Below, in pieces: positions 2,795 to 62,188 of a stretch of DNA of 64,000 bases. The translations under genes and the position numbers were made by a program. The first letter of the stretch is position 1; every line of letters starts with the position of its first letter. Below the pieces are notes generated by a model. That model did not search any database, was not told the DNA's origin, and saw only the letters and a list, made by a program, of their open reading frames with translations. Origin of the DNA: a virus (lineage: Duplodnaviria > Heunggongvirae > Uroviricota > Caudoviricetes); IMG/VR virus record IMGVR_UViG_3300045988_009603; one strand, given 5' to 3'.

Positions 2795-2870
2795 TGGAGA
2801 ATCCGAAGGGACTCGAACCCTTATAAACCTGTTTTGCAGACAGGCACATAGCCATTTCTGTCACGGATTC
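2795..2870 (-). tRNA. tRNA-Cys (anticodon GCA)
   Basis: anticodon stem-loop CCTGT-CTGCAAA-ACAGG; T-loop TTCGAGT; U73 discriminator; CCA encoded. Confidence 0.75.
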
Positions 2871-2874
2871 AAAT

Positions 2875-2967
2875 TGGAGGAAGATACCAGACTTGAACTG
2901 GTACACCGATTTCTCAGCTACTGGCAGTTTAGCAAACTGCTCCCTTACCTTTTAGGGTTAATCTTCC
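2875..2967 (-). tRNA. tRNA-Ser (anticodon GCU), long variable arm
   Basis: acceptor GGAAGAT/ATCTTCC; anticodon loop TGCTAAA; T-loop GTTCAAGTC; about 93 nt. Confidence 0.75.
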
Positions 2968-2968
2968 A

Positions 2969-3703
2969 TTATTTCTGTAATGCGTTCTTCATTTCTGGTG
3001 TTGCAATAGTGTCGATTACACCAGTTTTACAAGCATCATCAAACCAGTCTGGTAAGATACCTGCTAAGAACCCATTGATATTCGTTTTAAGGTACTCTGC
3101 AATAAGGGCAGTTTCTTCTTCAATCATCTGCACAACTTCATCTGCATAAGCTGTAATCTTCGAGATACCTTCATTAATCTTACTAACAGCTTGGTTAGCT
3201 AAATCAGAAATAGTATCAAGACCTTTATCAATAGCATCCTGTAAGTCGCTTAATACATCATTAACGCCATCTAGTGTACTGTTAATTGTATCCATAGCTT
3301 TTTGACCATACTCTGTAGCAACACCCATAATACCACTAAATGGTGTACAACCAACTTGCTCTCCTGCTGCACCCATAACATTAGAGTAGCCTTTTGCTAC
3401 CTGCATACGTGATGAAAACTCATCAATGGACTTTTGACCATAATCTGTCAGTGTCTTAGTAGTTGATGTAGTGCTTGTCAGACTCGTTGTAAAGCTATTA
3501 AGCAGAACTGTTGTAAGTCCAGCAGCAATAAGCTTATCCTTTATTGTGGGGTCTGTTACAGAGCTAATAGAGCTTACAAGTGATGTAGAGGCAGCTACGG
3601 TTCCACCTAGAACTGCTGCACCAGTAATAAGGGGATTAGAAAACCCTCTACCGGTTTTTAAGAGATTAAAAATCTCCTTACCTTGTTCTGTCATCTCTTT
3701 CAT
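2969..3703 (-). CDS. hypothetical protein embedded in tRNA cluster
   Basis: ORF track 2969..3766; internal start MKEMTEQ at 3703 preferred because upstream part overlaps tRNA-Phe; Thr/Ser-rich, no recognised domain. Confidence 0.5.
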   Translation of the reverse strand: MKEMTEQGKEIFNLLKTGRGFSNPLITGAAVLGGTVAASTSLVSSISSVTDPTIKDKLIAAGLTTVLLNSFTTSLTSTTSTTKTLTDYGQKSIDEFSSRMQVAKGYSNVMGAAGEQVGCTPFSGIMGVATEYGQKAMDTINSTLDGVNDVLSDLQDAIDKGLDTISDLANQAVSKINEGISKITAYADEVVQMIEEETALIAEYLKTNINGFLAGILPDWFDDACKTGVIDTIATPEMKNALQK

Positions 3704-3719
3704 TAAGCACCTTTGAAAT

Positions 3720-3795
3720 TGGTAGTCCAGTGGGATTTGAACCCTCTTCTCATGTTTTTCAGACACGCGCTTTAACCATATAAGCTACTTGGACT
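3720..3795 (-). tRNA. tRNA-Phe (anticodon GAA)
   Basis: anticodon loop CTGAAAA; T-loop TTCAAAT; A73; T-stem has one non-WC pair so boundaries +/-2. Confidence 0.6.
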
Positions 3796-3801
3796 ATAAA
3801 T

Positions 3802-3877
3802 TGGGGTGACCTACGGGATTTGAACCCGTATAGACCATGTTCACAGCATGGGTCATTACCATTTATGATAAGGCCAC
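3802..3877 (-). tRNA. tRNA-His (anticodon GUG)
   Basis: anticodon stem CCATG/CATGG, loop CTGTGAA; T-arm ACGGG-TTCAAAT-CCCGT. Confidence 0.8.
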
Positions 3878-3908
3878 ATTTAAGGACTCTCGTAAGAACC
3901 CTTAGAAG

Positions 3909-3984
3909 TGGCAGCGGCATAAGGATTTGAACCTTAATAAGACAGCTTCAGAGACTGCTGCATTGCCAGTTATGCTATACCGCT
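3909..3984 (-). tRNA. tRNA-Gln (anticodon CUG)
   Basis: standard cloverleaf, D-stem GCAT/ATGC, anticodon loop CTCTGAA. Confidence 0.65.
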
Positions 3985-3989
3985 AAATT

Positions 3990-4068
3990 TGGTACTCCAT
4001 ATCGGATTCGAACCGATACATAACACAGATTTTAAGTCTGGCCTCTCTGCCAATTGGAGTAATGGAGC
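3990..4068 (-). tRNA. tRNA with anticodon UAA (Leu isoacceptor by anticodon), short variable arm
   Basis: anticodon loop CTTAAAA; D-loop CAATTGGCAGA; A73; T-arm ATCGG-TTCGAAT-CCGAT. Confidence 0.5.
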
Positions 4069-4070
4069 AT

Positions 4071-4146
4071 TGGCGGGGGATGTTGGAATTGAACCAACTT
4101 CTTCGATTTCAAAGACCGAGGTTTTAACCTTGTAAACTAATCCCCT
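4071..4146 (-). tRNA. tRNA-Gln (anticodon UUG)
   Basis: anticodon stem TCGGT/ATCGA, loop CTTTGAA; T-arm GTTGG-TTCAATT-CCAAC. Confidence 0.6.
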
Positions 4147-4154
4147 TTAAATCT

Positions 4155-4712
4155 TTACTTCCTTAGTGGATGAATAAAGAATGCCAACATAACTCTTTCC
4201 CTTGAGAATGCTCTTTCTTCTGGGACAACACTTTTAAGTTTCCATCCAACATAAATTCTCCAGTAGAATTGTTTACCAAAGACTTTAATTGATGGGATAA
4301 AGGCGAATAACCCCCAAGCATTACTGTTCCACATTAGGAGATAACCTGTCTGATTATCTTCATGGTCAGAACTTACGTTGATATTACCTTTCCACTTAGT
4401 AACATCTTTTACATCTCTTCCTAACACATGGTAAGAGAAGTTATAAGCTTTGTTTCTCCAGAGCCATCCAACTCTCTGCAAATAGACACCAAGCTTACCA
4501 ATCTTTCTAATCTTAGCCCATCTTTTAACGTGACCTTCATCACCATCAATTGGGTTGTCATATGTCTCCATCCATCTGAATCCAAAAGGTAGATGTCCTT
4601 TCTTCTCACTATAGAATGGAACTACAAAAGGTGCTAAGATAACTGCTAAGATTGCTGCCAATGGGTCTAGCAAAGCTAGGAAAATCCATGAAGCATACTT
4701 CAAATATCTCAT
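4155..4712 (-). CDS. hypothetical membrane protein embedded in tRNA cluster
   Basis: 185 aa ORF; hydrophobic N-terminus IFLALLDPLAAILAVILAPFVVPF; Trp-rich. Confidence 0.5.
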   Translation of the reverse strand: MRYLKYASWIFLALLDPLAAILAVILAPFVVPFYSEKKGHLPFGFRWMETYDNPIDGDEGHVKRWAKIRKIGKLGVYLQRVGWLWRNKAYNFSYHVLGRDVKDVTKWKGNINVSSDHEDNQTGYLLMWNSNAWGLFAFIPSIKVFGKQFYWRIYVGWKLKSVVPEERAFSRERVMLAFFIHPLRK

Positions 4713-4731
4713 TTAAATAGCCTCTTTAAAT

Positions 4732-4807
4732 TGGCGCAGGATAAGGGATTCGAACCCCTATTAACAGCTTCGTAGACTGTTGCTCTATCCATTTGAACTA
4801 ATCCTGC
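4732..4807 (-). tRNA. tRNA-Arg (anticodon ACG)
   Basis: acceptor GCAGGAT/ATCCTGC; anticodon loop CTACGAA; T-loop TTCGAAT. Confidence 0.75.
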
Positions 4808-4812
4808 AAAAT

Positions 4813-4890
4813 TGGTGTTCCAAGACGGATTCGAACCGTCACTAGTACAAGGTTTGAGCTTGCATCCTCTGCCAATTGGGATACTGGAAC
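4813..4890 (-). tRNA. tRNA with anticodon CAA (Leu isoacceptor by anticodon), short variable arm
   Basis: anticodon stem GCAAG/CTTGT, loop CTCAAAC; D-loop CAATTGGCAGA; A73. Confidence 0.5.
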
Positions 4891-4891
4891 A

Positions 4892-4966
4892 TGGTACTCA
4901 CTAAAGGACTTGAACCTTTTTCTTCATCTTGTAAGGGTGATGTTTTACCATATAAACTAAGCGAGT
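4892..4966 (-). tRNA. tRNA-Val (anticodon UAC)
   Basis: anticodon loop CTTACAA; T-arm AAAGG-TTCAAGT-CCTTT; one C-A mismatch in anticodon stem. Confidence 0.6.
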
Positions 4967-5061
4967 ATGAAAGAGGTCTGAAGTTGTGCCGCTAACTCAA
5001 CTCCGTGGAATTTGTTACGGTCTTCAGTTGACACCAGCGGTCTTTCACTTGACCTCTGAAT
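4967..5061 (-). ncRNA. structured non-tRNA spacer (pseudoknot-like crossed helices)
   Basis: no T-loop motif; crossed complementarities CTGAAG/CTTCAG and GCCGCT/AGCGGT plus outer GAGGTC/GACCTC. Confidence 0.3.
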
Positions 5062-5138
5062 TGGTGCTGCTCACAGGACTCGAACCTGCATTTCCATCCT
5101 TACAAGGGATGTGTAATAGCCAATTATACGAAAGCAGC
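5062..5138 (-). tRNA. tRNA-Thr (anticodon UGU)
   Basis: anticodon stem CATCC/GGATG, loop CTTGTAA; T-arm GCAGG-TTCGAGT-CCTGT. Confidence 0.8.
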
Positions 5139-5139
5139 A

Positions 5140-5553
5140 TTAAACTTTTATGATACCAGCATGTACTTTTCTGTGACAGTTAGCGCACAAGACAATGCAC
5201 TTTCTGATTTCATCTTTTAATCTTTTTGTGGAGTATGAATAAAGTGATGCAGGATTCAAATCTTTCTGGGAAGGGTCTGTATGGTGTAAATCCAATGCAA
5301 CTGGTTCTTTCTCACCACATATATGACATTTGCATAAAGCTTTGTACCTTCTAGCTAGAGTCTTGTTATACTCTCTCTTGAAGTTACGAGTACTTTTAAT
5401 AGCCTCTTTCCTTTTATCATTTGCTTGATAACTCTTTGCATCACGAAGTCTTGCACAGTCTTTGCATTGACTTTGAAGACCATCTTTCTTGTTCTTATTC
5501 TTATGGAATAAGCTTTCATCTTTTGGTATTCTGCAAGTACTGCATATTTTCAT
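5140..5553 (-). CDS. HNH endonuclease embedded in tRNA cluster
   Basis: 137 aa; Cys-rich, LDLHHTDP...CANCHRKVH HNH motif. Confidence 0.75.
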   Translation of the reverse strand: MKICSTCRIPKDESLFHKNKNKKDGLQSQCKDCARLRDAKSYQANDKRKEAIKSTRNFKREYNKTLARRYKALCKCHICGEKEPVALDLHHTDPSQKDLNPASLYSYSTKRLKDEIRKCIVLCANCHRKVHAGIIKV

Positions 5554-5567
5554 ATCACACCTTAATT

Positions 5568-5642
5568 TGGAGCATCCAGAGGGAATCGAACCCTCAACCT
5601 CAGTTTGGAAGACTGTAATTTTCCCGTTTAAACTATGGATGC
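5568..5642 (-). tRNA. tRNA-Gly (anticodon UCC)
   Basis: acceptor GCATCCA/TGGATGC; anticodon loop CTTCCAA; T-loop TTCGATT. Confidence 0.7.
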
Positions 5643-5648
5643 ACTAAT

Positions 5649-5724
5649 TGGTGGAGTCACTGAGAATTGAACTCAGTTACCGAGTTTGCAAAACTCGAAT
5701 TTTAACCATATAAACTATGACCCC
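5649..5724 (-). tRNA. tRNA-Ala (anticodon UGC)
   Basis: anticodon stem CGAGT/ACTCG, loop TTTGCAA; G3-U70 pair in acceptor stem. Confidence 0.8.
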
Positions 5725-5730
5725 AATGTT

Positions 5731-5806
5731 TGGTACAGGTGGAGGGAATTGAACCCATCGTCTTACTGATTAAGAGTCAGCCGCATAACCATTTTGCTAC
5801 ACCTGC
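5731..5806 (-). tRNA. tRNA-Lys (anticodon CUU)
   Basis: anticodon loop CTCTTAA; paralogous to the UUU copy at 6957-7032; T-stem only GGG/CCC. Confidence 0.6.
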
Positions 5807-5813
5807 ATTAATT

Positions 5814-5891
5814 TGGTAGGAGACAAGGGATTCGAACCCTCAAACACCAACTTCTAAGGATGGTAGGTTTACCAATTACCGTCAATCTCCC
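5814..5891 (-). tRNA. tRNA with anticodon UAG (Leu isoacceptor by anticodon), short variable arm
   Basis: anticodon loop CTTAGAA (stem has U-U mismatch); T-arm GAGGG-TTCGAAT-CCCTT; D-loop TAATTGGTAAA. Confidence 0.45.
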
Positions 5892-5966
5892 ATTAAATCT
5901 TTTTAGAGAACTTCTAAGAACCTAAGCAACAAGGTTCCACAACAAGCTGTAATAACCTTAGAAGCC

Positions 5967-5990
5967 CTCTAAAAAGACCTAAATAGGTCT
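5967..5990 (-). terminator. internal terminator-like hairpin in tRNA operon spacer
   Basis: minus-strand AGACCUAUUUAGGUCU followed by U5. Confidence 0.45.
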
Positions 5991-6146
5991 TTGCATAGTC
6001 TTGTTTAATCCGGTGACTAGAACCTTTGGAGAGCTTGATATTATCTCTTCTCCGTGACACCTACTAGGTGCTTTATCAGTGTGTACGACAATACACGAGG
6101 GATACCAAAGCAACATCCGAATGAAGCTTGGCTTTAAATCTTATTA

Positions 6147-6236
6147 GGCGGTAAGTAAAGGAGTCGAACCCTCACCGTATCTCTACAGTGGCAACAGTTT
6201 TCAAGACTGTTTGGCTGCCATTAGCCGCTACCTACC
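6147..6236 (-). tRNA. tRNA-Ser (anticodon UGA), long variable arm
   Basis: anticodon stem ACAGT/ACTGT, loop CTTGAAA; about 90 nt; G73; 3' CC encoded, terminal A not. Confidence 0.7.
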
Positions 6237-6249
6237 CCTAATAAGACTT

Positions 6250-6332
6250 TGGCATGGGACGGAGGAGTTGAACCCCTTTGAAACGGTTTTGGAGGCCGTT
6301 GCTCATGCCTTAGAGTCTTAACATCGTCCCAC
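6250..6332 (-). tRNA. tRNA-Trp-like (anticodon CCA) with extra nucleotides between acceptor stem and D-stem
   Basis: anticodon arm ACGGC-CUCCAAA-ACCGU resembles E. coli tRNA-Trp; acceptor GTGGGAC/GTCCCAT; about 7 nt longer than canonical. Confidence 0.45.
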
Positions 6333-6474
6333 ACTATAATTCGAAGCTTACCGTATTTTCGCAACACTGTAAAGCCCCTTCTCAGATTATTTACATGTTC
6401 TGGAAAACATGAGATACAGACCACCTCCTTACACGGAGACCCGATAAGGTCGTCTAAGCAATCTGCTAACTATT

Positions 6475-6551
6475 TGGCACACCCTACAGGATTCGAACCT
6501 GTAACTAACGATTTAGAAGACCGTTGCTCTATCCAATTGAACTAAGGGTGC
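6475..6551 (-). tRNA. tRNA-Arg (anticodon UCU)
   Basis: canonical D-arm GTTC-AATTGGATA-GAGC; anticodon loop CTTCTAA. Confidence 0.8.
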
Positions 6552-6798
6552 ATTAATCTTTAAAGACTCTCTTAGAAAGCCCTTAAAGATGCCCACCTTA
6601 TTAATCATACCGTGGGCGAGTACGCCAAATTCTTTGATGAGGGATTGGAAGACCTCACTGGTGTTTAGCCTATCAAGCTACTGCCAGAAAAACATTGTCG
6701 TTTGCATTTATTTTAAATTTGCAAAATAGACGCTACGCAACGAAAACTAAGGTTACTATAAAGTGGTCACATGTTAATGTCAACAACTTTATTGAAAT

Positions 6799-6874
6799 TG
6801 GTACTGGTAGGTGGAATCGAACCACCGATGTTCCCTTATCAGGGGAGTGTTATAACCTTCTTAACTATACCAGC
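6799..6874 (-). tRNA. tRNA-Ile (anticodon GAU)
   Basis: anticodon loop CTGATAA; T-arm GGTGG-TTCGATT-CCACC. Confidence 0.8.
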
Positions 6875-6875
6875 T

Positions 6876-6952
6876 TGGAGGTTCAGATGGGAATCGAACC
6901 CACATTCATAGGGCTTATGAGACCCCTGCATTACCTTATCTGCGACTGAACC
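6876..6952 (-). tRNA. tRNA-Met (anticodon CAU; elongator Met or Ile2 not distinguishable)
   Basis: acceptor GGTTCAG/CTGAACC; anticodon loop CTCATAA. Confidence 0.7.
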
Positions 6953-6956
6953 ATAT

Positions 6957-7032
6957 TGGTAGAAGTGGAGGGATTCGAACCCATCGCCTGTCAGATTAAA
7001 AGTCTGCCGCATCACCATTCTGCTACACTTCC
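6957..7032 (-). tRNA. tRNA-Lys (anticodon UUU)
   Basis: anticodon loop CTTTTAA; same unusual T-stem as the CUU copy. Confidence 0.65.
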
Positions 7033-7179
7033 ATTAAATTATCTTTGTAGATAAGCTACCCAGACTTGCTTAAGGTCTGTAGCGATGTGCTTTGTTGGGT
7101 TTAAATCTAGAATTTACCCTTTCACCCTTTGTGGTCGCATACTCACAGGTAAGCTTAATAACTTATCTACAAAGATAAT

Positions 7180-7316
7180 TACCAGACCGTTGTTTATCAT
7201 CTTAAGTGCTACCATTACACCAACTCGACATCTGCCGAGTGAAGGAATCGAACCTTCGCCTTTTCTTTACCGGAGAAATAGATTGTTTAAGTTTTGCTGT
7301 AAACGGTCTTCTGTAA
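7180..7316 (-). ncRNA. tRNA-like element with permuted arm order, enclosed by a terminal inverted repeat
   Basis: minus strand reads terminal stem AGACCGUU, T-arm GAAGG-UUCGAUU-CCUUC, ACUCGGC, AGAU, GUCGAGU, D-arm-like GUGUAAUGGUAGCAC, closing AACGGUCU; no canonical 5'-to-3' cloverleaf. Confidence 0.3.
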
Positions 7317-7490
7317 ATTTGTTGAGCCAGACCAAGTTTTAAATTTTTTCAAAATTAAATTGGCTTGAAAATATCATACGTACTTGCTGAATTTGGTCTT
7401 CTGCTCCTTTAAAGAATACTCGTAAGAACTCTTTAAGGGAGGGGCTAAATAGCCCTCTCAAAACATCATCTTGAAATACTTATTATAATT

Positions 7491-7568
7491 TGGCGGTTAC
7501 GAAGGGATTTGAACCCTCATCATCTCCCGTGACAGGGGAGTATTTTAACCAGATTAAACTACATAACC
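7491..7568 (-). tRNA. tRNA-Asp (anticodon GUC)
   Basis: anticodon stem CTCCC/GGGAG, loop CTGTCAC; G73. Confidence 0.85.
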
Positions 7569-7574
7569 TTTATT

Positions 7575-7662
7575 TGGTGTGCCGTGTAGGAGTCGAACCT
7601 ACCGAGTCTCAATGACAAGGGATTTACAGTCCCCACCGCTACCATCTACGGGATAACGACAC
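7575..7662 (-). tRNA. tRNA-Tyr (anticodon GUA), long variable arm
   Basis: anticodon loop CTGTAAA; T-arm GTAGG-TTCGACT-CCTAC; about 88 nt. Confidence 0.8.
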
Positions 7663-7671
7663 ATTTAAATT

Positions 7672-7748
7672 TGGCGGTTAGTCAGGGATTCGAACCCTGT
7701 GCCATTCGCTTAACAGGCGACCGCACATACCTTATGTGCTTCCTAACC
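7672..7748 (-). tRNA. tRNA-Asn (anticodon GUU)
   Basis: D-stem GCAC/GTGC; anticodon loop CTGTTAA. Confidence 0.8.
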
Positions 7749-7825
7749 TTAATACATTGCCAGACCGTGTTTTTTCTTTTATCCGCAAAAAGTAGTTTGT
7801 TGCTGCATACGGTCTTCTGCAAAAT

Positions 7826-7902
7826 TGGAGGCGGGTGCAGGAGTCGAACCTGCCGATACCATGCTAATGAGACATGTGAGACGCCCTTTCTCTATACCCG
7901 CA
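7826..7902 (-). tRNA. tRNA with anticodon CAU (second Met-type; initiator or Ile2 possible)
   Basis: anticodon loop CTCATTA; T-arm GCAGG-TTCGACT-CCTGC; 1:72 mismatch. Confidence 0.55.
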
Positions 7903-7993
7903 ATTCTTAATGACCAGACCAAATATCTTCTTTGTCCGATTTATCTTCAGATGAATAAGATTAAGTTTGCTGCAATTGGTCTTCTGTCAAAAC

Positions 7994-8071
7994 TGGCGTT
8001 CCAGAAGGGATTTGAACCCTCAAATATCCACTTTGAAAGAGTGGTGACTTTACCGTTTTGTCTACTGGAAC
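7994..8071 (-). tRNA. tRNA-Glu (anticodon UUC)
   Basis: anticodon stem CCACT/AGTGG, loop CTTTCAA; acceptor GTTCCAG/CTGGAAC. Confidence 0.85.
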
Positions 8072-8078
8072 ATTAATT

Positions 8079-8155
8079 TGGTCTCTGTTGGAGGACTTGA
8101 ACCTCCGGCCTTACCGCCCCAAACGGAACGCTCTACCAAGCTGAGCTAAACAGAG
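8079..8155 (-). tRNA. tRNA-Pro (anticodon UGG)
   Basis: canonical D-arm GCTC-AGCTTGGTA-GAGC; anticodon loop TTTGGGG. Confidence 0.75.
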
Positions 8156-61980: not shown

Positions 61981-62188
61981 TATGCAAATTTTAGTAAACT
62001 ATATCTATTGCTACGATGTTGTTTATTCCACTGCAACCGTGGCCCAACAAAACCCAATAGTACCACGAGAGGGTGAATGGGTTCGTATTGATGGTTGGAC
62101 TTACACTGTGGAGAGTATTACTCACAAGTTTGATGTTGCTGGTGATGTTCAAGTTATCGACGTAGAGATTGGTGGTAAGAGAAAATGA
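61883..62188 (+). CDS. hypothetical protein
   Basis: 101 aa ORF overlapping lipoprotein gene end. Confidence 0.35.
   Translation: MLLSDAPTLKQQHLIDMAKMVNLTPLLLMEGTDMQILVNYIYCYDVVYSTATVAQQNPIVPREGEWVRIDGWTYTVESITHKFDVAGDVQVIDVEIGGKRK

Follow-up and report, generated by a model that had tools for sequence, protein, structure and literature searches.

The 64,000-nucleotide (nt) stretch analysed here in full (the window), taken from the IMG/VR record IMGVR_UViG_3300045988_009603 of a Caudoviricetes virus, carries three transfer RNA (tRNA) genes with the leucine anticodons UAA, CAA and UAG but with short variable regions in place of the long arm of bacterial class II tRNA-Leu. These are very probably functional leucine tRNAs of the phage, type-I-like in their body, charged by the host's leucyl-tRNA synthetase (LeuRS) and serving leucine codons that the phage overuses. 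The original prediction, made from the DNA letters without database searches, had left two explanations side by side, namely that the phage has found an unusual solution or that the anticodon arms were mis-parsed.

ARAGORN returned all three genes at the coordinates originally proposed and placed them on the minus strand, which had been left unstated (Table 1). The tRNA covariance model of Rfam (RF00005; curated gathering score, 29 bits) matched each of them over its full length (model positions 1–71) and above the gathering score. The anticodon loops read as claimed (CUUAAAA in Leu(UAA), CUCAAAC in Leu(CAA) and CUUAGAA in Leu(UAG)), and ARAGORN and Rfam placed them identically in all three tRNAs; a different placement by software is one of two outcomes that the prediction had named as refuting it. 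The expected variable regions of 5–7 nt were likewise borne out: these measure 7 nt (GUUAUGU), 6 nt (ACUAGU) and 5 nt (UGUUU), respectively, all end in U48 and form no stem, so that none is a stem-loop arm of at least 10 nt as in class II tRNA-Leu. A73 and A37, which had been credited to two of the tRNAs, occur in all three, as does an encoded CCA end.

The claim of a 3-bp D stem with an 11-nt CAAUUGGCAGA-type loop holds for Leu(UAA) (CUC/CAAUUGGCAGA/GAG) and Leu(CAA) (UCC/CAAUUGGCAGA/GGA), in which the Leu-type D arm, with AAUYGGNARA in register and 20 nt in the 8–26 region, is exact. It fails for Leu(UAG), whose D region (UGACGGUAAUUGGUAAACCU) contains one extra nt, bringing the 8–26 region to 21 nt. 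ARAGORN parses this region as a 3-nt connector followed by a four-pair stem with a C.U mismatch, and homology to phage BF23 as A10-U25, C11.C24 and G12-C23 closing a 12-nt loop. The acceptor stem starts with G1.U72 in Leu(UAA) and Leu(UAG) and with G1-C72 in Leu(CAA). Mismatches in the anticodon stem comprise C27.U43 in Leu(UAA) and U30.U40 in Leu(UAG). Each of the three tRNAs adopts the canonical cloverleaf, and the D/T elbow is normal.

All three genes are real, conserved tRNAs, produced neither by chance nor by mis-parsing. Leu(UAA) recurs at ≥99% identity in 216 phage records, Leu(CAA) at 99–100% in 70 (and at ≥95% in 248) and Leu(UAG) at 99–100% in 71, and near-identical copies carry the label tRNA-Leu wherever they are annotated. 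Chance is excluded because of this 99–100% identity in 216, 70 and 71 records together with compensatory changes in the UAG family. For the latter, an alignment was made of eight homologues, taken from Felixounavirus, Suspvirus, Seunavirus and T5-like phages. In the cloverleaf register, 94.4% of cells were paired, compared to 41–61% when the register was slid by 1–3 columns. Six pairs showed changes on both sides, including three of the five anticodon-stem pairs, and the covariation score was reached by none of 500 shuffles. The U30.U40 mismatch of the window gene is a C-G pair in other Felixounavirus alleles. Covariation backs the 7-bp acceptor register with A73 as well as the anticodon stem of Leu(UAG), and in the latter stem it fixes the register. 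The phiEa104 orthologue of Leu(CAA) (77 nt; called tRNA-Leu by tRNAscan-SE with 50.3 bits) has a wholly different, yet paired, acceptor stem, and G30-C40 replaces A30-U40.

For a comparison of leucine identity elements, the E. coli K-12 genes leuZ (UAA), leuX (CAA), leuW (UAG) and leuQPV (CAG) were fetched and dissected identically to the phage tRNAs. The E. coli genes all show U8, a D stem of 3 bp with an 11-nt loop of the form R-AAUYGGUAGA, A73 and a terminal U in the variable region. Common to the phage and E. coli sets are the D-arm architecture with AAUYGGNAGA, A73, U48, the canonical T loop and the anticodons UAA, CAA and UAG. Leu(UAA) and Leu(CAA) have exactly the E. coli Leu D arm (CAAUUGGCAGA loop) in addition to A73 and U48, and contain the complete E. 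coli-type identity set (A73, A14, A15-U48, G18G19 after U16U17, A20a, the 3-bp/11-nt D arm and the canonical T loop). The whole set is also present in Leu(UAG), but there the D arm (UAAUUGGUAAA) harbors the extra nt and one stem mismatch. The E. coli tRNAs differ in their 13–15-nt variable arms and lengths of 85–87 nt (5–7 nt and 78–79 nt in the phage) and in having U32 where the phage tRNAs have C32; the stems of the phage tRNAs are rich in AU and contain G.U pairs and mismatches. Phage and E. coli tRNA-Leu probably share the same synthetase. Biochemically, E. coli LeuRS depends on A73, A15-U48, G18G19, A20a and the D/T-loop tertiary pairs, whereas the anticodon and the long arm are not needed, and variants without both arms are still charged (PMC9976931).

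The combination of A73 with the Leu D arm was found in none of the 23 other tRNAs of the phage cluster. Over all fetched loci, the Leu D-arm signature marked 331 of 488 Leu tRNAs, compared to four of ~1,870 non-Leu tRNAs, only two of which also have A73 and U48. Isotype-specific scoring was performed with profile hidden Markov models of viral tRNAs for 20 isotypes, with the anticodon masked and the variable region removed; long-armed genes alone served to train the Leu profile. Leu ranked first for all three tRNAs (31.1 vs. 26.5 bits for UAA, 19.1 vs. 15.6 for CAA and 30.3 vs. 25.8 for UAG), a result we consider supporting rather than decisive.

A characterised homologue exists for the window's Leu(UAG), namely tRNAL1 of the T5-like phage BF23 (GenBank AJ604530, Tequintavirus; anticodon UAG); identity to it and to the tRNA-Leu of T5-like phages is 83–85%. 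BF23 tRNAL1 is 77 nt long including CCA and has a 5-nt variable region, A73 and a Leu-type D arm (AUG/GAAUUGGCAUA/CAU). The two tRNAs have the U30.U40 mismatch and an identical T arm in common; the window gene differs by its extra D-region nt, C11 for U11 (resulting in a C.C mismatch), G1.U72 for G1-C72 and another acceptor stem. According to a note in AJ604530, replacement of the tRNAL1 anticodon by CUA yields an 'effective amber suppressor'. In view of this suppressor, a BF23-type short-armed tRNA-Leu is processed in E. coli, its charging does not depend on the anticodon, and the ribosome uses it. The annotation of the BF23 tRNA region contains no UAA or CAA tRNA-Leu, in contrast to the three short-armed Leu tRNAs of the Felix O1-like phage. 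Relatives of the window's UAA and CAA tRNAs come from Ounavirinae and a few other phages, none of them characterised.

Host LeuRS would charge the phage tRNAs with leucine via A73 and the elbow. Leu(UAA) would then read UUA and UUG, Leu(CAA) UUG, and Leu(UAG) the CUN box, and the three may supplement the decoding of leucine codons on which the AT-rich phage relies much more heavily than E. coli. The window has a G+C content of 38.7%, and 7.9% of all codons in its open reading frames (ORFs) are leucine codons (UUA 26%, UUG 15%, CUU 28%, CUA 10%, CUC 7% and CUG 13.5%). In E. coli, CUG makes up about half of leucine codons; there, leuQPV comprises three tRNA-Leu(CAG) genes, and leuZ, leuX and leuW are each the sole Leu tRNA gene in their locus. 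Among the 26 ARAGORN calls in the phage cluster, the Leu anticodons are UAA, CAA and UAG, with no CAG. A phage-encoded LeuRS was considered as well and rejected, as no such domain was present in the six window ORFs of ≥500 amino acids. Charging by the host LeuRS and a supplementing role are best supported because UAA, CAA and UAG are encoded without CAG and the six large ORFs contain no synthetase domain. The seryl- and bacterial tyrosyl-tRNA synthetases (SerRS and TyrRS) use the long arm of their tRNAs. A tRNA-Leu could shed its arm because LeuRS does not need it, and the phage Ser and Tyr tRNAs would keep theirs because SerRS and bacterial TyrRS use them.

Several points weigh against this reading. 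Single-sequence minimum-free-energy folding yields no cloverleaf (z-scores of –1.6, –1.5 and –0.3), although such a weak result is usual for AU-rich tRNA transcripts and was given no weight against the genes. Leu(UAG) is irregular (extra D-region nt, C.C or C.U mismatch in the D stem, U30.U40, G1.U72), and Leu(UAA) contains the C27.U43 mismatch. The isotype test was right for 15 of 23 control tRNAs of the window (~65%), and its margins in favor of Leu amount to 3.5–4.6 bits. For LeuRS of M. tuberculosis, and for the E. coli LeuRS–tRNA-Leu complex discussed in the same work (PDB 4AQ7), contacts of the C-terminal domain (through Arg921 and Arg811, respectively) with the base of the long arm are reported (PMC3561953; PMC12360207), and because of this contact charging may be slower than for host tRNA-Leu. 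The AJ604530 note is silent on the amino acid inserted by the tRNAL1 suppressor. E. coli codon usage and tRNA copy numbers are taken from textbook knowledge, complemented by the four Leu tRNA loci read, and the window represents 64 kb of a roughly 88-kb genome.

Short-armed tRNA-Leu genes are not confined to this phage. A search pattern consisting of the Leu D loop, a YAR anticodon, the T loop and a short spacer, which selects for neither A73 nor U48, matched at least 120 contigs in IMG/VR, and ARAGORN called all 120 listed matches tRNA-Leu (74–80 nt). A combined scan for short and long spacers revealed a bimodal length distribution with 25 short-armed and 95 long-armed contigs among the 120 listed. 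Among the matches listed, viral tRNA-Leu genes with an AATTGG D loop are thus short-armed in about 21% of cases; this figure depends on the sequence in which short and long genes came up in a single combined scan and refers to this D loop only. Again among the matches listed, the short-armed share was 1/38 in loci with 1–2 tRNAs, 9/43 in loci with 3–7 and 15/42 (36%) in loci with at least eight. For 170 distinct viral short-armed genes from these matches, 17 pairs of the acceptor, anticodon and T stems were paired in 92–100%; in shuffles, 15 of the 17 dropped to 41–69%, with pair 1-72 at 0.88 and the invariant G53-C61 being uninformative. Of the same genes, 170/170 have A73 and 168/170 have U48.

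Across 215 viral loci, tRNA-Ser was long-armed in 131 of 133 cases and tRNA-Tyr in 51 of 53, whereas tRNA-Leu was short-armed in 181 and long-armed in 163. Arm loss is therefore specific to Leu among the Leu, Ser and Tyr tRNAs of the same clusters. Several short-armed lineages have relatives of 84–87% identity with long or intermediate arms, which suggests that the arm shrank repeatedly and independently.

On bacterial contigs (one genome per species), at least 120 matches to the short-arm pattern were obtained. In 86 of the 120 listed loci, the gene was the single tRNA gene in the stretch fetched, mostly in Actinomycetota (Mycobacterium, Nocardia, Rhodococcus, Corynebacterium, Bifidobacterium, Arthrobacter and others), and ~20 of the 120 belonged to long arrays of tRNA genes from cyanobacteria, Acidobacteriota, myxobacteria and mycobacteria. 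With 74–77 nt, a 5-nt variable region, the CAAUUGGCAGA D loop, A73 and U48, the short tRNA-Leu of Actinomycetota and arrays resemble the phage design, but their G+C content is high (mean 61%), CCA is mostly not encoded, and they have no close sequence kinship to the window genes and are for the most part single genes in the 8-kb stretch fetched. The features that define the short-armed type, i.e. a Leu anticodon, a 4–8-nt variable region, A73 and U48, are present in all three window tRNAs. Animal mitochondrial tRNA-Leu also resembles the phage tRNAs in its short variable region and in leucylation via A73 and A14 (PMC9976931). In contrast, the anticodon stem of human mitochondrial tRNA-Leu(UUR) is fragile and mismatched, its transcript is floppy, and it uses a dedicated mitochondrial LeuRS (PMC9976931), whereas in the phage tRNAs G18G19, UUCGAAU and the full elbow are intact. 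Of the marks of the animal mitochondrial type, a reduced or non-canonical D/T elbow is absent from them, and as to a dedicated LeuRS, no synthetase domain was found in the six window ORFs of ≥500 amino acids.

The premise of the original prediction that bacterial tRNA-Leu is normally long-armed agrees with reviews from 2023 and 2025, according to which tRNA-Leu has a long arm except in animal mitochondria (PMC9976931, PMC12360207), but it is not universal when judged by our genome scans. Similarly, its suggestion of an unusual phage solution was right in that these are Leu-type tRNAs without a class II arm and wrong in that they are not unusual, given T5/BF23, the viral contigs, the bacterial arrays and Actinomycetota. 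No paper dealing specifically with short-armed tRNA-Leu of phages or bacteria came up in literature searches, which gave one explicit remark, on the short variable loop of a tRNA-Leu(TAG) from a Mycobacterium tRNA cluster (PMC6582537), and one indirect hint, as long variable loops are named in M. tuberculosis mainly for tRNA-Leu-2, 3 and 5 (PMC11541572).

Other explanations for the three genes have to be weighed against these data. That the true anticodons lie elsewhere, in ordinary class I tRNAs of another isotype, is next to impossible. Rfam does shift the acceptor stem of Leu(UAG) by one base relative to ARAGORN, but both agree on the anticodon loop in all three genes, covariation supports the acceptor stem as well as the anticodon stem, and slid registers pair in 41–61%; two independent tRNA finders and the UAG family thus refute mis-parsed anticodon arms. 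A switch of identity, in which tRNAs with Leu anticodons would be charged with another amino acid and UUR/CUN codons be partly recoded, has a parallel in yeast mitochondrial class I tRNAs that carry Leu-box anticodons and are charged with Thr or Ala (PMC7609411), and a T5-like homologue (H201) is labelled 'tRNA-OTHER' by some annotation pipelines. Nevertheless, A73, the Leu D arm and U48 in all three tRNAs, the top rank of the Leu profile with the anticodon masked, and ordinary leucine codon use (7.9% of all codons) make it extremely improbable. Alanine identity was rejected, as G3.U70 occurs in none of the three, their 3-70 pairs being U-A (UAA), U-A (CAA) and G-C (UAG). The bases that textbook identity rules demand for the Val, Ile, Met, Thr or Lys synthetases are absent from the three anticodons, which also counts against such a switch. 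It is very unlikely, too, that the genes are decaying or serve outside translation as pseudogenes, decoys, primers or regulators. The mismatches in Leu(UAA) and Leu(UAG), the extra D-region nt of the latter, Rfam scores of these two among the lowest of the cluster, the weak folding z-scores and the labels 'Pseudo' or 'Undet' on phiEa104 tRNA genes in the same cluster would fit decay. However, near-identical sequences persist in hundreds of isolates, stems are maintained by compensatory substitutions, CCA is encoded, A73 is invariant and U48 nearly so among the listed viral short-armed genes, and the BF23 homologue, which shares the U30.U40 mismatch, acts as an in vivo suppressor.

A further explanation is compatible with charging by LeuRS and departs from the preferred reading only in why the arm was lost. 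The short arm might itself be adaptive, allowing escape from factors that read the type II arm (defence toxins, nucleases, nucleotidyltransferases) and keeping leucine decoding going when host tRNA-Leu is attacked. The enrichment of short-armed tRNA-Leu in large mobile tRNA clusters (from 1/38 via 9/43 to 15/42, among the matches listed), their presence in bacterial tRNA arrays, and the 84–87% identical longer-armed relatives suggestive of repeated independent shrinkage all favor this idea, which we still regard as rather unlikely. Neutral loss of a dispensable element combined with phage genome compaction explains the same pattern, the trait is found in ordinary chromosomal genes of Actinomycetota, and the Ser and Tyr tRNAs of the same clusters keep their arms and would hence stay exposed. 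Literature searches gave no factor targeting E. coli tRNA-Leu through its arm, and we know of none. The wider claim that arm loss is a recurrent selected trait of mobile tRNA-Leu, and that the Leu tRNAs of Felix O1-like and T5-like phages are a counter-defence or take-over device instead of simple codon compensation, appears distinctly unlikely. If adaptation were the cause, leucine decoding would become independent of, or invisible to, arm-recognising toxins, nucleases and modification enzymes of host or phage.

The genes, read here as working leucine tRNAs charged by the host LeuRS, are already known and annotated as tRNA-Leu in many of the 70–216 near-identical Felix O1-like records, so that the finding is correct but ordinary. 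Under-appreciated are the spread of short-armed tRNA-Leu and the Leu-specificity of arm loss, and the trait has received little attention in reviews. The natural pattern, in which Leu loses the arm while Ser and Tyr keep it, matches the in vitro finding that bacterial LeuRS needs no arm, whereas SerRS and TyrRS use theirs. This bears on tRNA annotation pipelines, on how orthogonal or minimal tRNA-Leu scaffolds are designed and on the question of the selective cause of arm loss.

The three genes are part of a cluster of 26 tRNAs called by ARAGORN (2795..8155), all on the minus strand and interspersed with small ORFs; 24 of the 26 were confirmed by Rfam. The tRNA region is 95–97% identical to Felixounavirus genomes, e.g. 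EcoM2 and Felix O1, in which these genes carry the annotation tRNA-Leu, and the cluster layout is the same as in the annotation of Escherichia phage EcoM2. By sequence similarity, the source phage is Felix O1-like. The cluster also encodes tRNAs with long variable arms, which are listed in Table 1 along with features of other records that are referred to below.

Table 1. Coordinates and anatomy of the tRNA genes discussed, with related features from other records (window positions unless a locus is given; parts are listed from acceptor stem to CCA end)
Feature	Coordinates or loci	Strand	Length or variable region	Calls	Parts
tRNA-Leu(UAA)	3990..4068	minus	79 nt with encoded CCA	ARAGORN; Rfam 47.5 bits	GCUCCAU UA CUC CAAUUGGCAGA GAG G CCAGA CUUAAAA UCUGU GUUAUGU AUCGG UUCGAAU CCGAU AUGGAGU A CCA
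tRNA-Leu(CAA)	4813..4890	minus	78 nt with CCA	ARAGORN; Rfam 43.6 bits	GUUCCAG UA UCC CAAUUGGCAGA GGA U GCAAG CUCAAAC CUUGU ACUAGU GACGG UUCGAAU CCGUC UUGGAAC A CCA
tRNA-Leu(UAG)	5814..5891	minus	78 nt with CCA	ARAGORN; Rfam 40.0 bits	GGGAGAU UGA CGGU AAUUGGUAA ACCU A CCAUC CUUAGAA GUUGG UGUUU GAGGG UUCGAAU CCCUU GUCUCCU A CCA
Two tRNA-Ser with long arms	2875-2967 and 6147-6236	minus	variable region 20-21 nt		
tRNA-Tyr(GUA) with long arm	7575-7662	minus	variable region 15 nt	ARAGORN; below Rfam gathering score	
tRNA-Met(CAU), one of two	7826-7902	minus		ARAGORN; below Rfam gathering score	
BF23 non-tRNA RNA genes	L336 3020-3380, 4056-4227, 5371-5473, 5701-5825, 6619-6692; L337 3752-4535				
Long-armed UAU tRNAs	IMG/VR loci L005, L014, L018, L026, L043, L047, L070, L071, L089, L106, L107, L174, L178, L182, L206				

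Among the remaining cluster members, tRNA-Ser(GCU) shows, in the ARAGORN parse, U73 in place of the customary G73 as well as a 3-nt connector between acceptor and D stem; this gene is kept in Mooglevirus and in Erwinia phage phiEa104. For tRNA-Ser(UGA), the ARAGORN call stops at CC following G73, while CCA is reported for 23 of the other 25 genes, with tRNA-Phe deviating as well. The tRNA-Met(CAU) listed in Table 1 combines a 7-nt D loop (AAGGGCG), a 3-nt connector, the anticodon loop CUCAUUA and U73. The BF23 record annotates genes for 'stable RNA with unknown functions' and 'tRNA-like RNA' between its tRNAs; tRNA-free gaps in the window cluster include 5892-6146 and 6237-6474.

Mooglevirus 3HA14 encodes an unrelated short-armed tRNA-Leu(UAG) (L343:4528-4604) between tRNA-Lys(CUU) and tRNA-Ser(UGA), the slot in which the Felixounavirus allele, as in the window, is of the T5/BF23 type. 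Within Felixounavirus, tRNA-Leu(UAG) occurs as several alleles of 85–92% identity with differing anticodon stems. Because of the unrelated gene in the same slot and the divergent Felixounavirus alleles, comparison of these loci points to exchange of the tRNA-Leu(UAG) gene between phage families. A copy 100% identical to the window's tRNA-Leu(UAA) was found at 62026-62103 of GU169904.1, labelled Staphylococcus phage SA1, suggesting that this record contains Felix O1-like sequence or is misattributed.

G1.U72, seen in two of the three window Leu tRNAs while the E. coli tRNA-Leu genes have G1-C72, occurs across the viral loci (L001–L215) in 41% of short-armed and 30% of long-armed tRNA-Leu, compared to 11% of other viral tRNAs. 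A tie between G1.U72 and arm loss was rejected on account of its frequency in the long-armed genes. On the IMG/VR contig 3300045988_182201 and a relative (L069 and L113), a complete Leu-type body with the D arm GAAUUGGUAGA, A73, U48 and an 8-nt variable region is combined with the Glu anticodon UUC. If charged by LeuRS, this tRNA would put leucine at GAA/GAG codons; alternatively, it could be a decaying copy. Lastly, the inverse of arm loss was encountered in at least 15 distinct phage tRNAs with the anticodon UAU, called tRNA-Ile, an isotype that is normally class I. These tRNAs are 90–96 nt long and have variable arms of 21–27 nt, in most cases with an arm motif like CCAGAUUAG or ACAGAUAAU.

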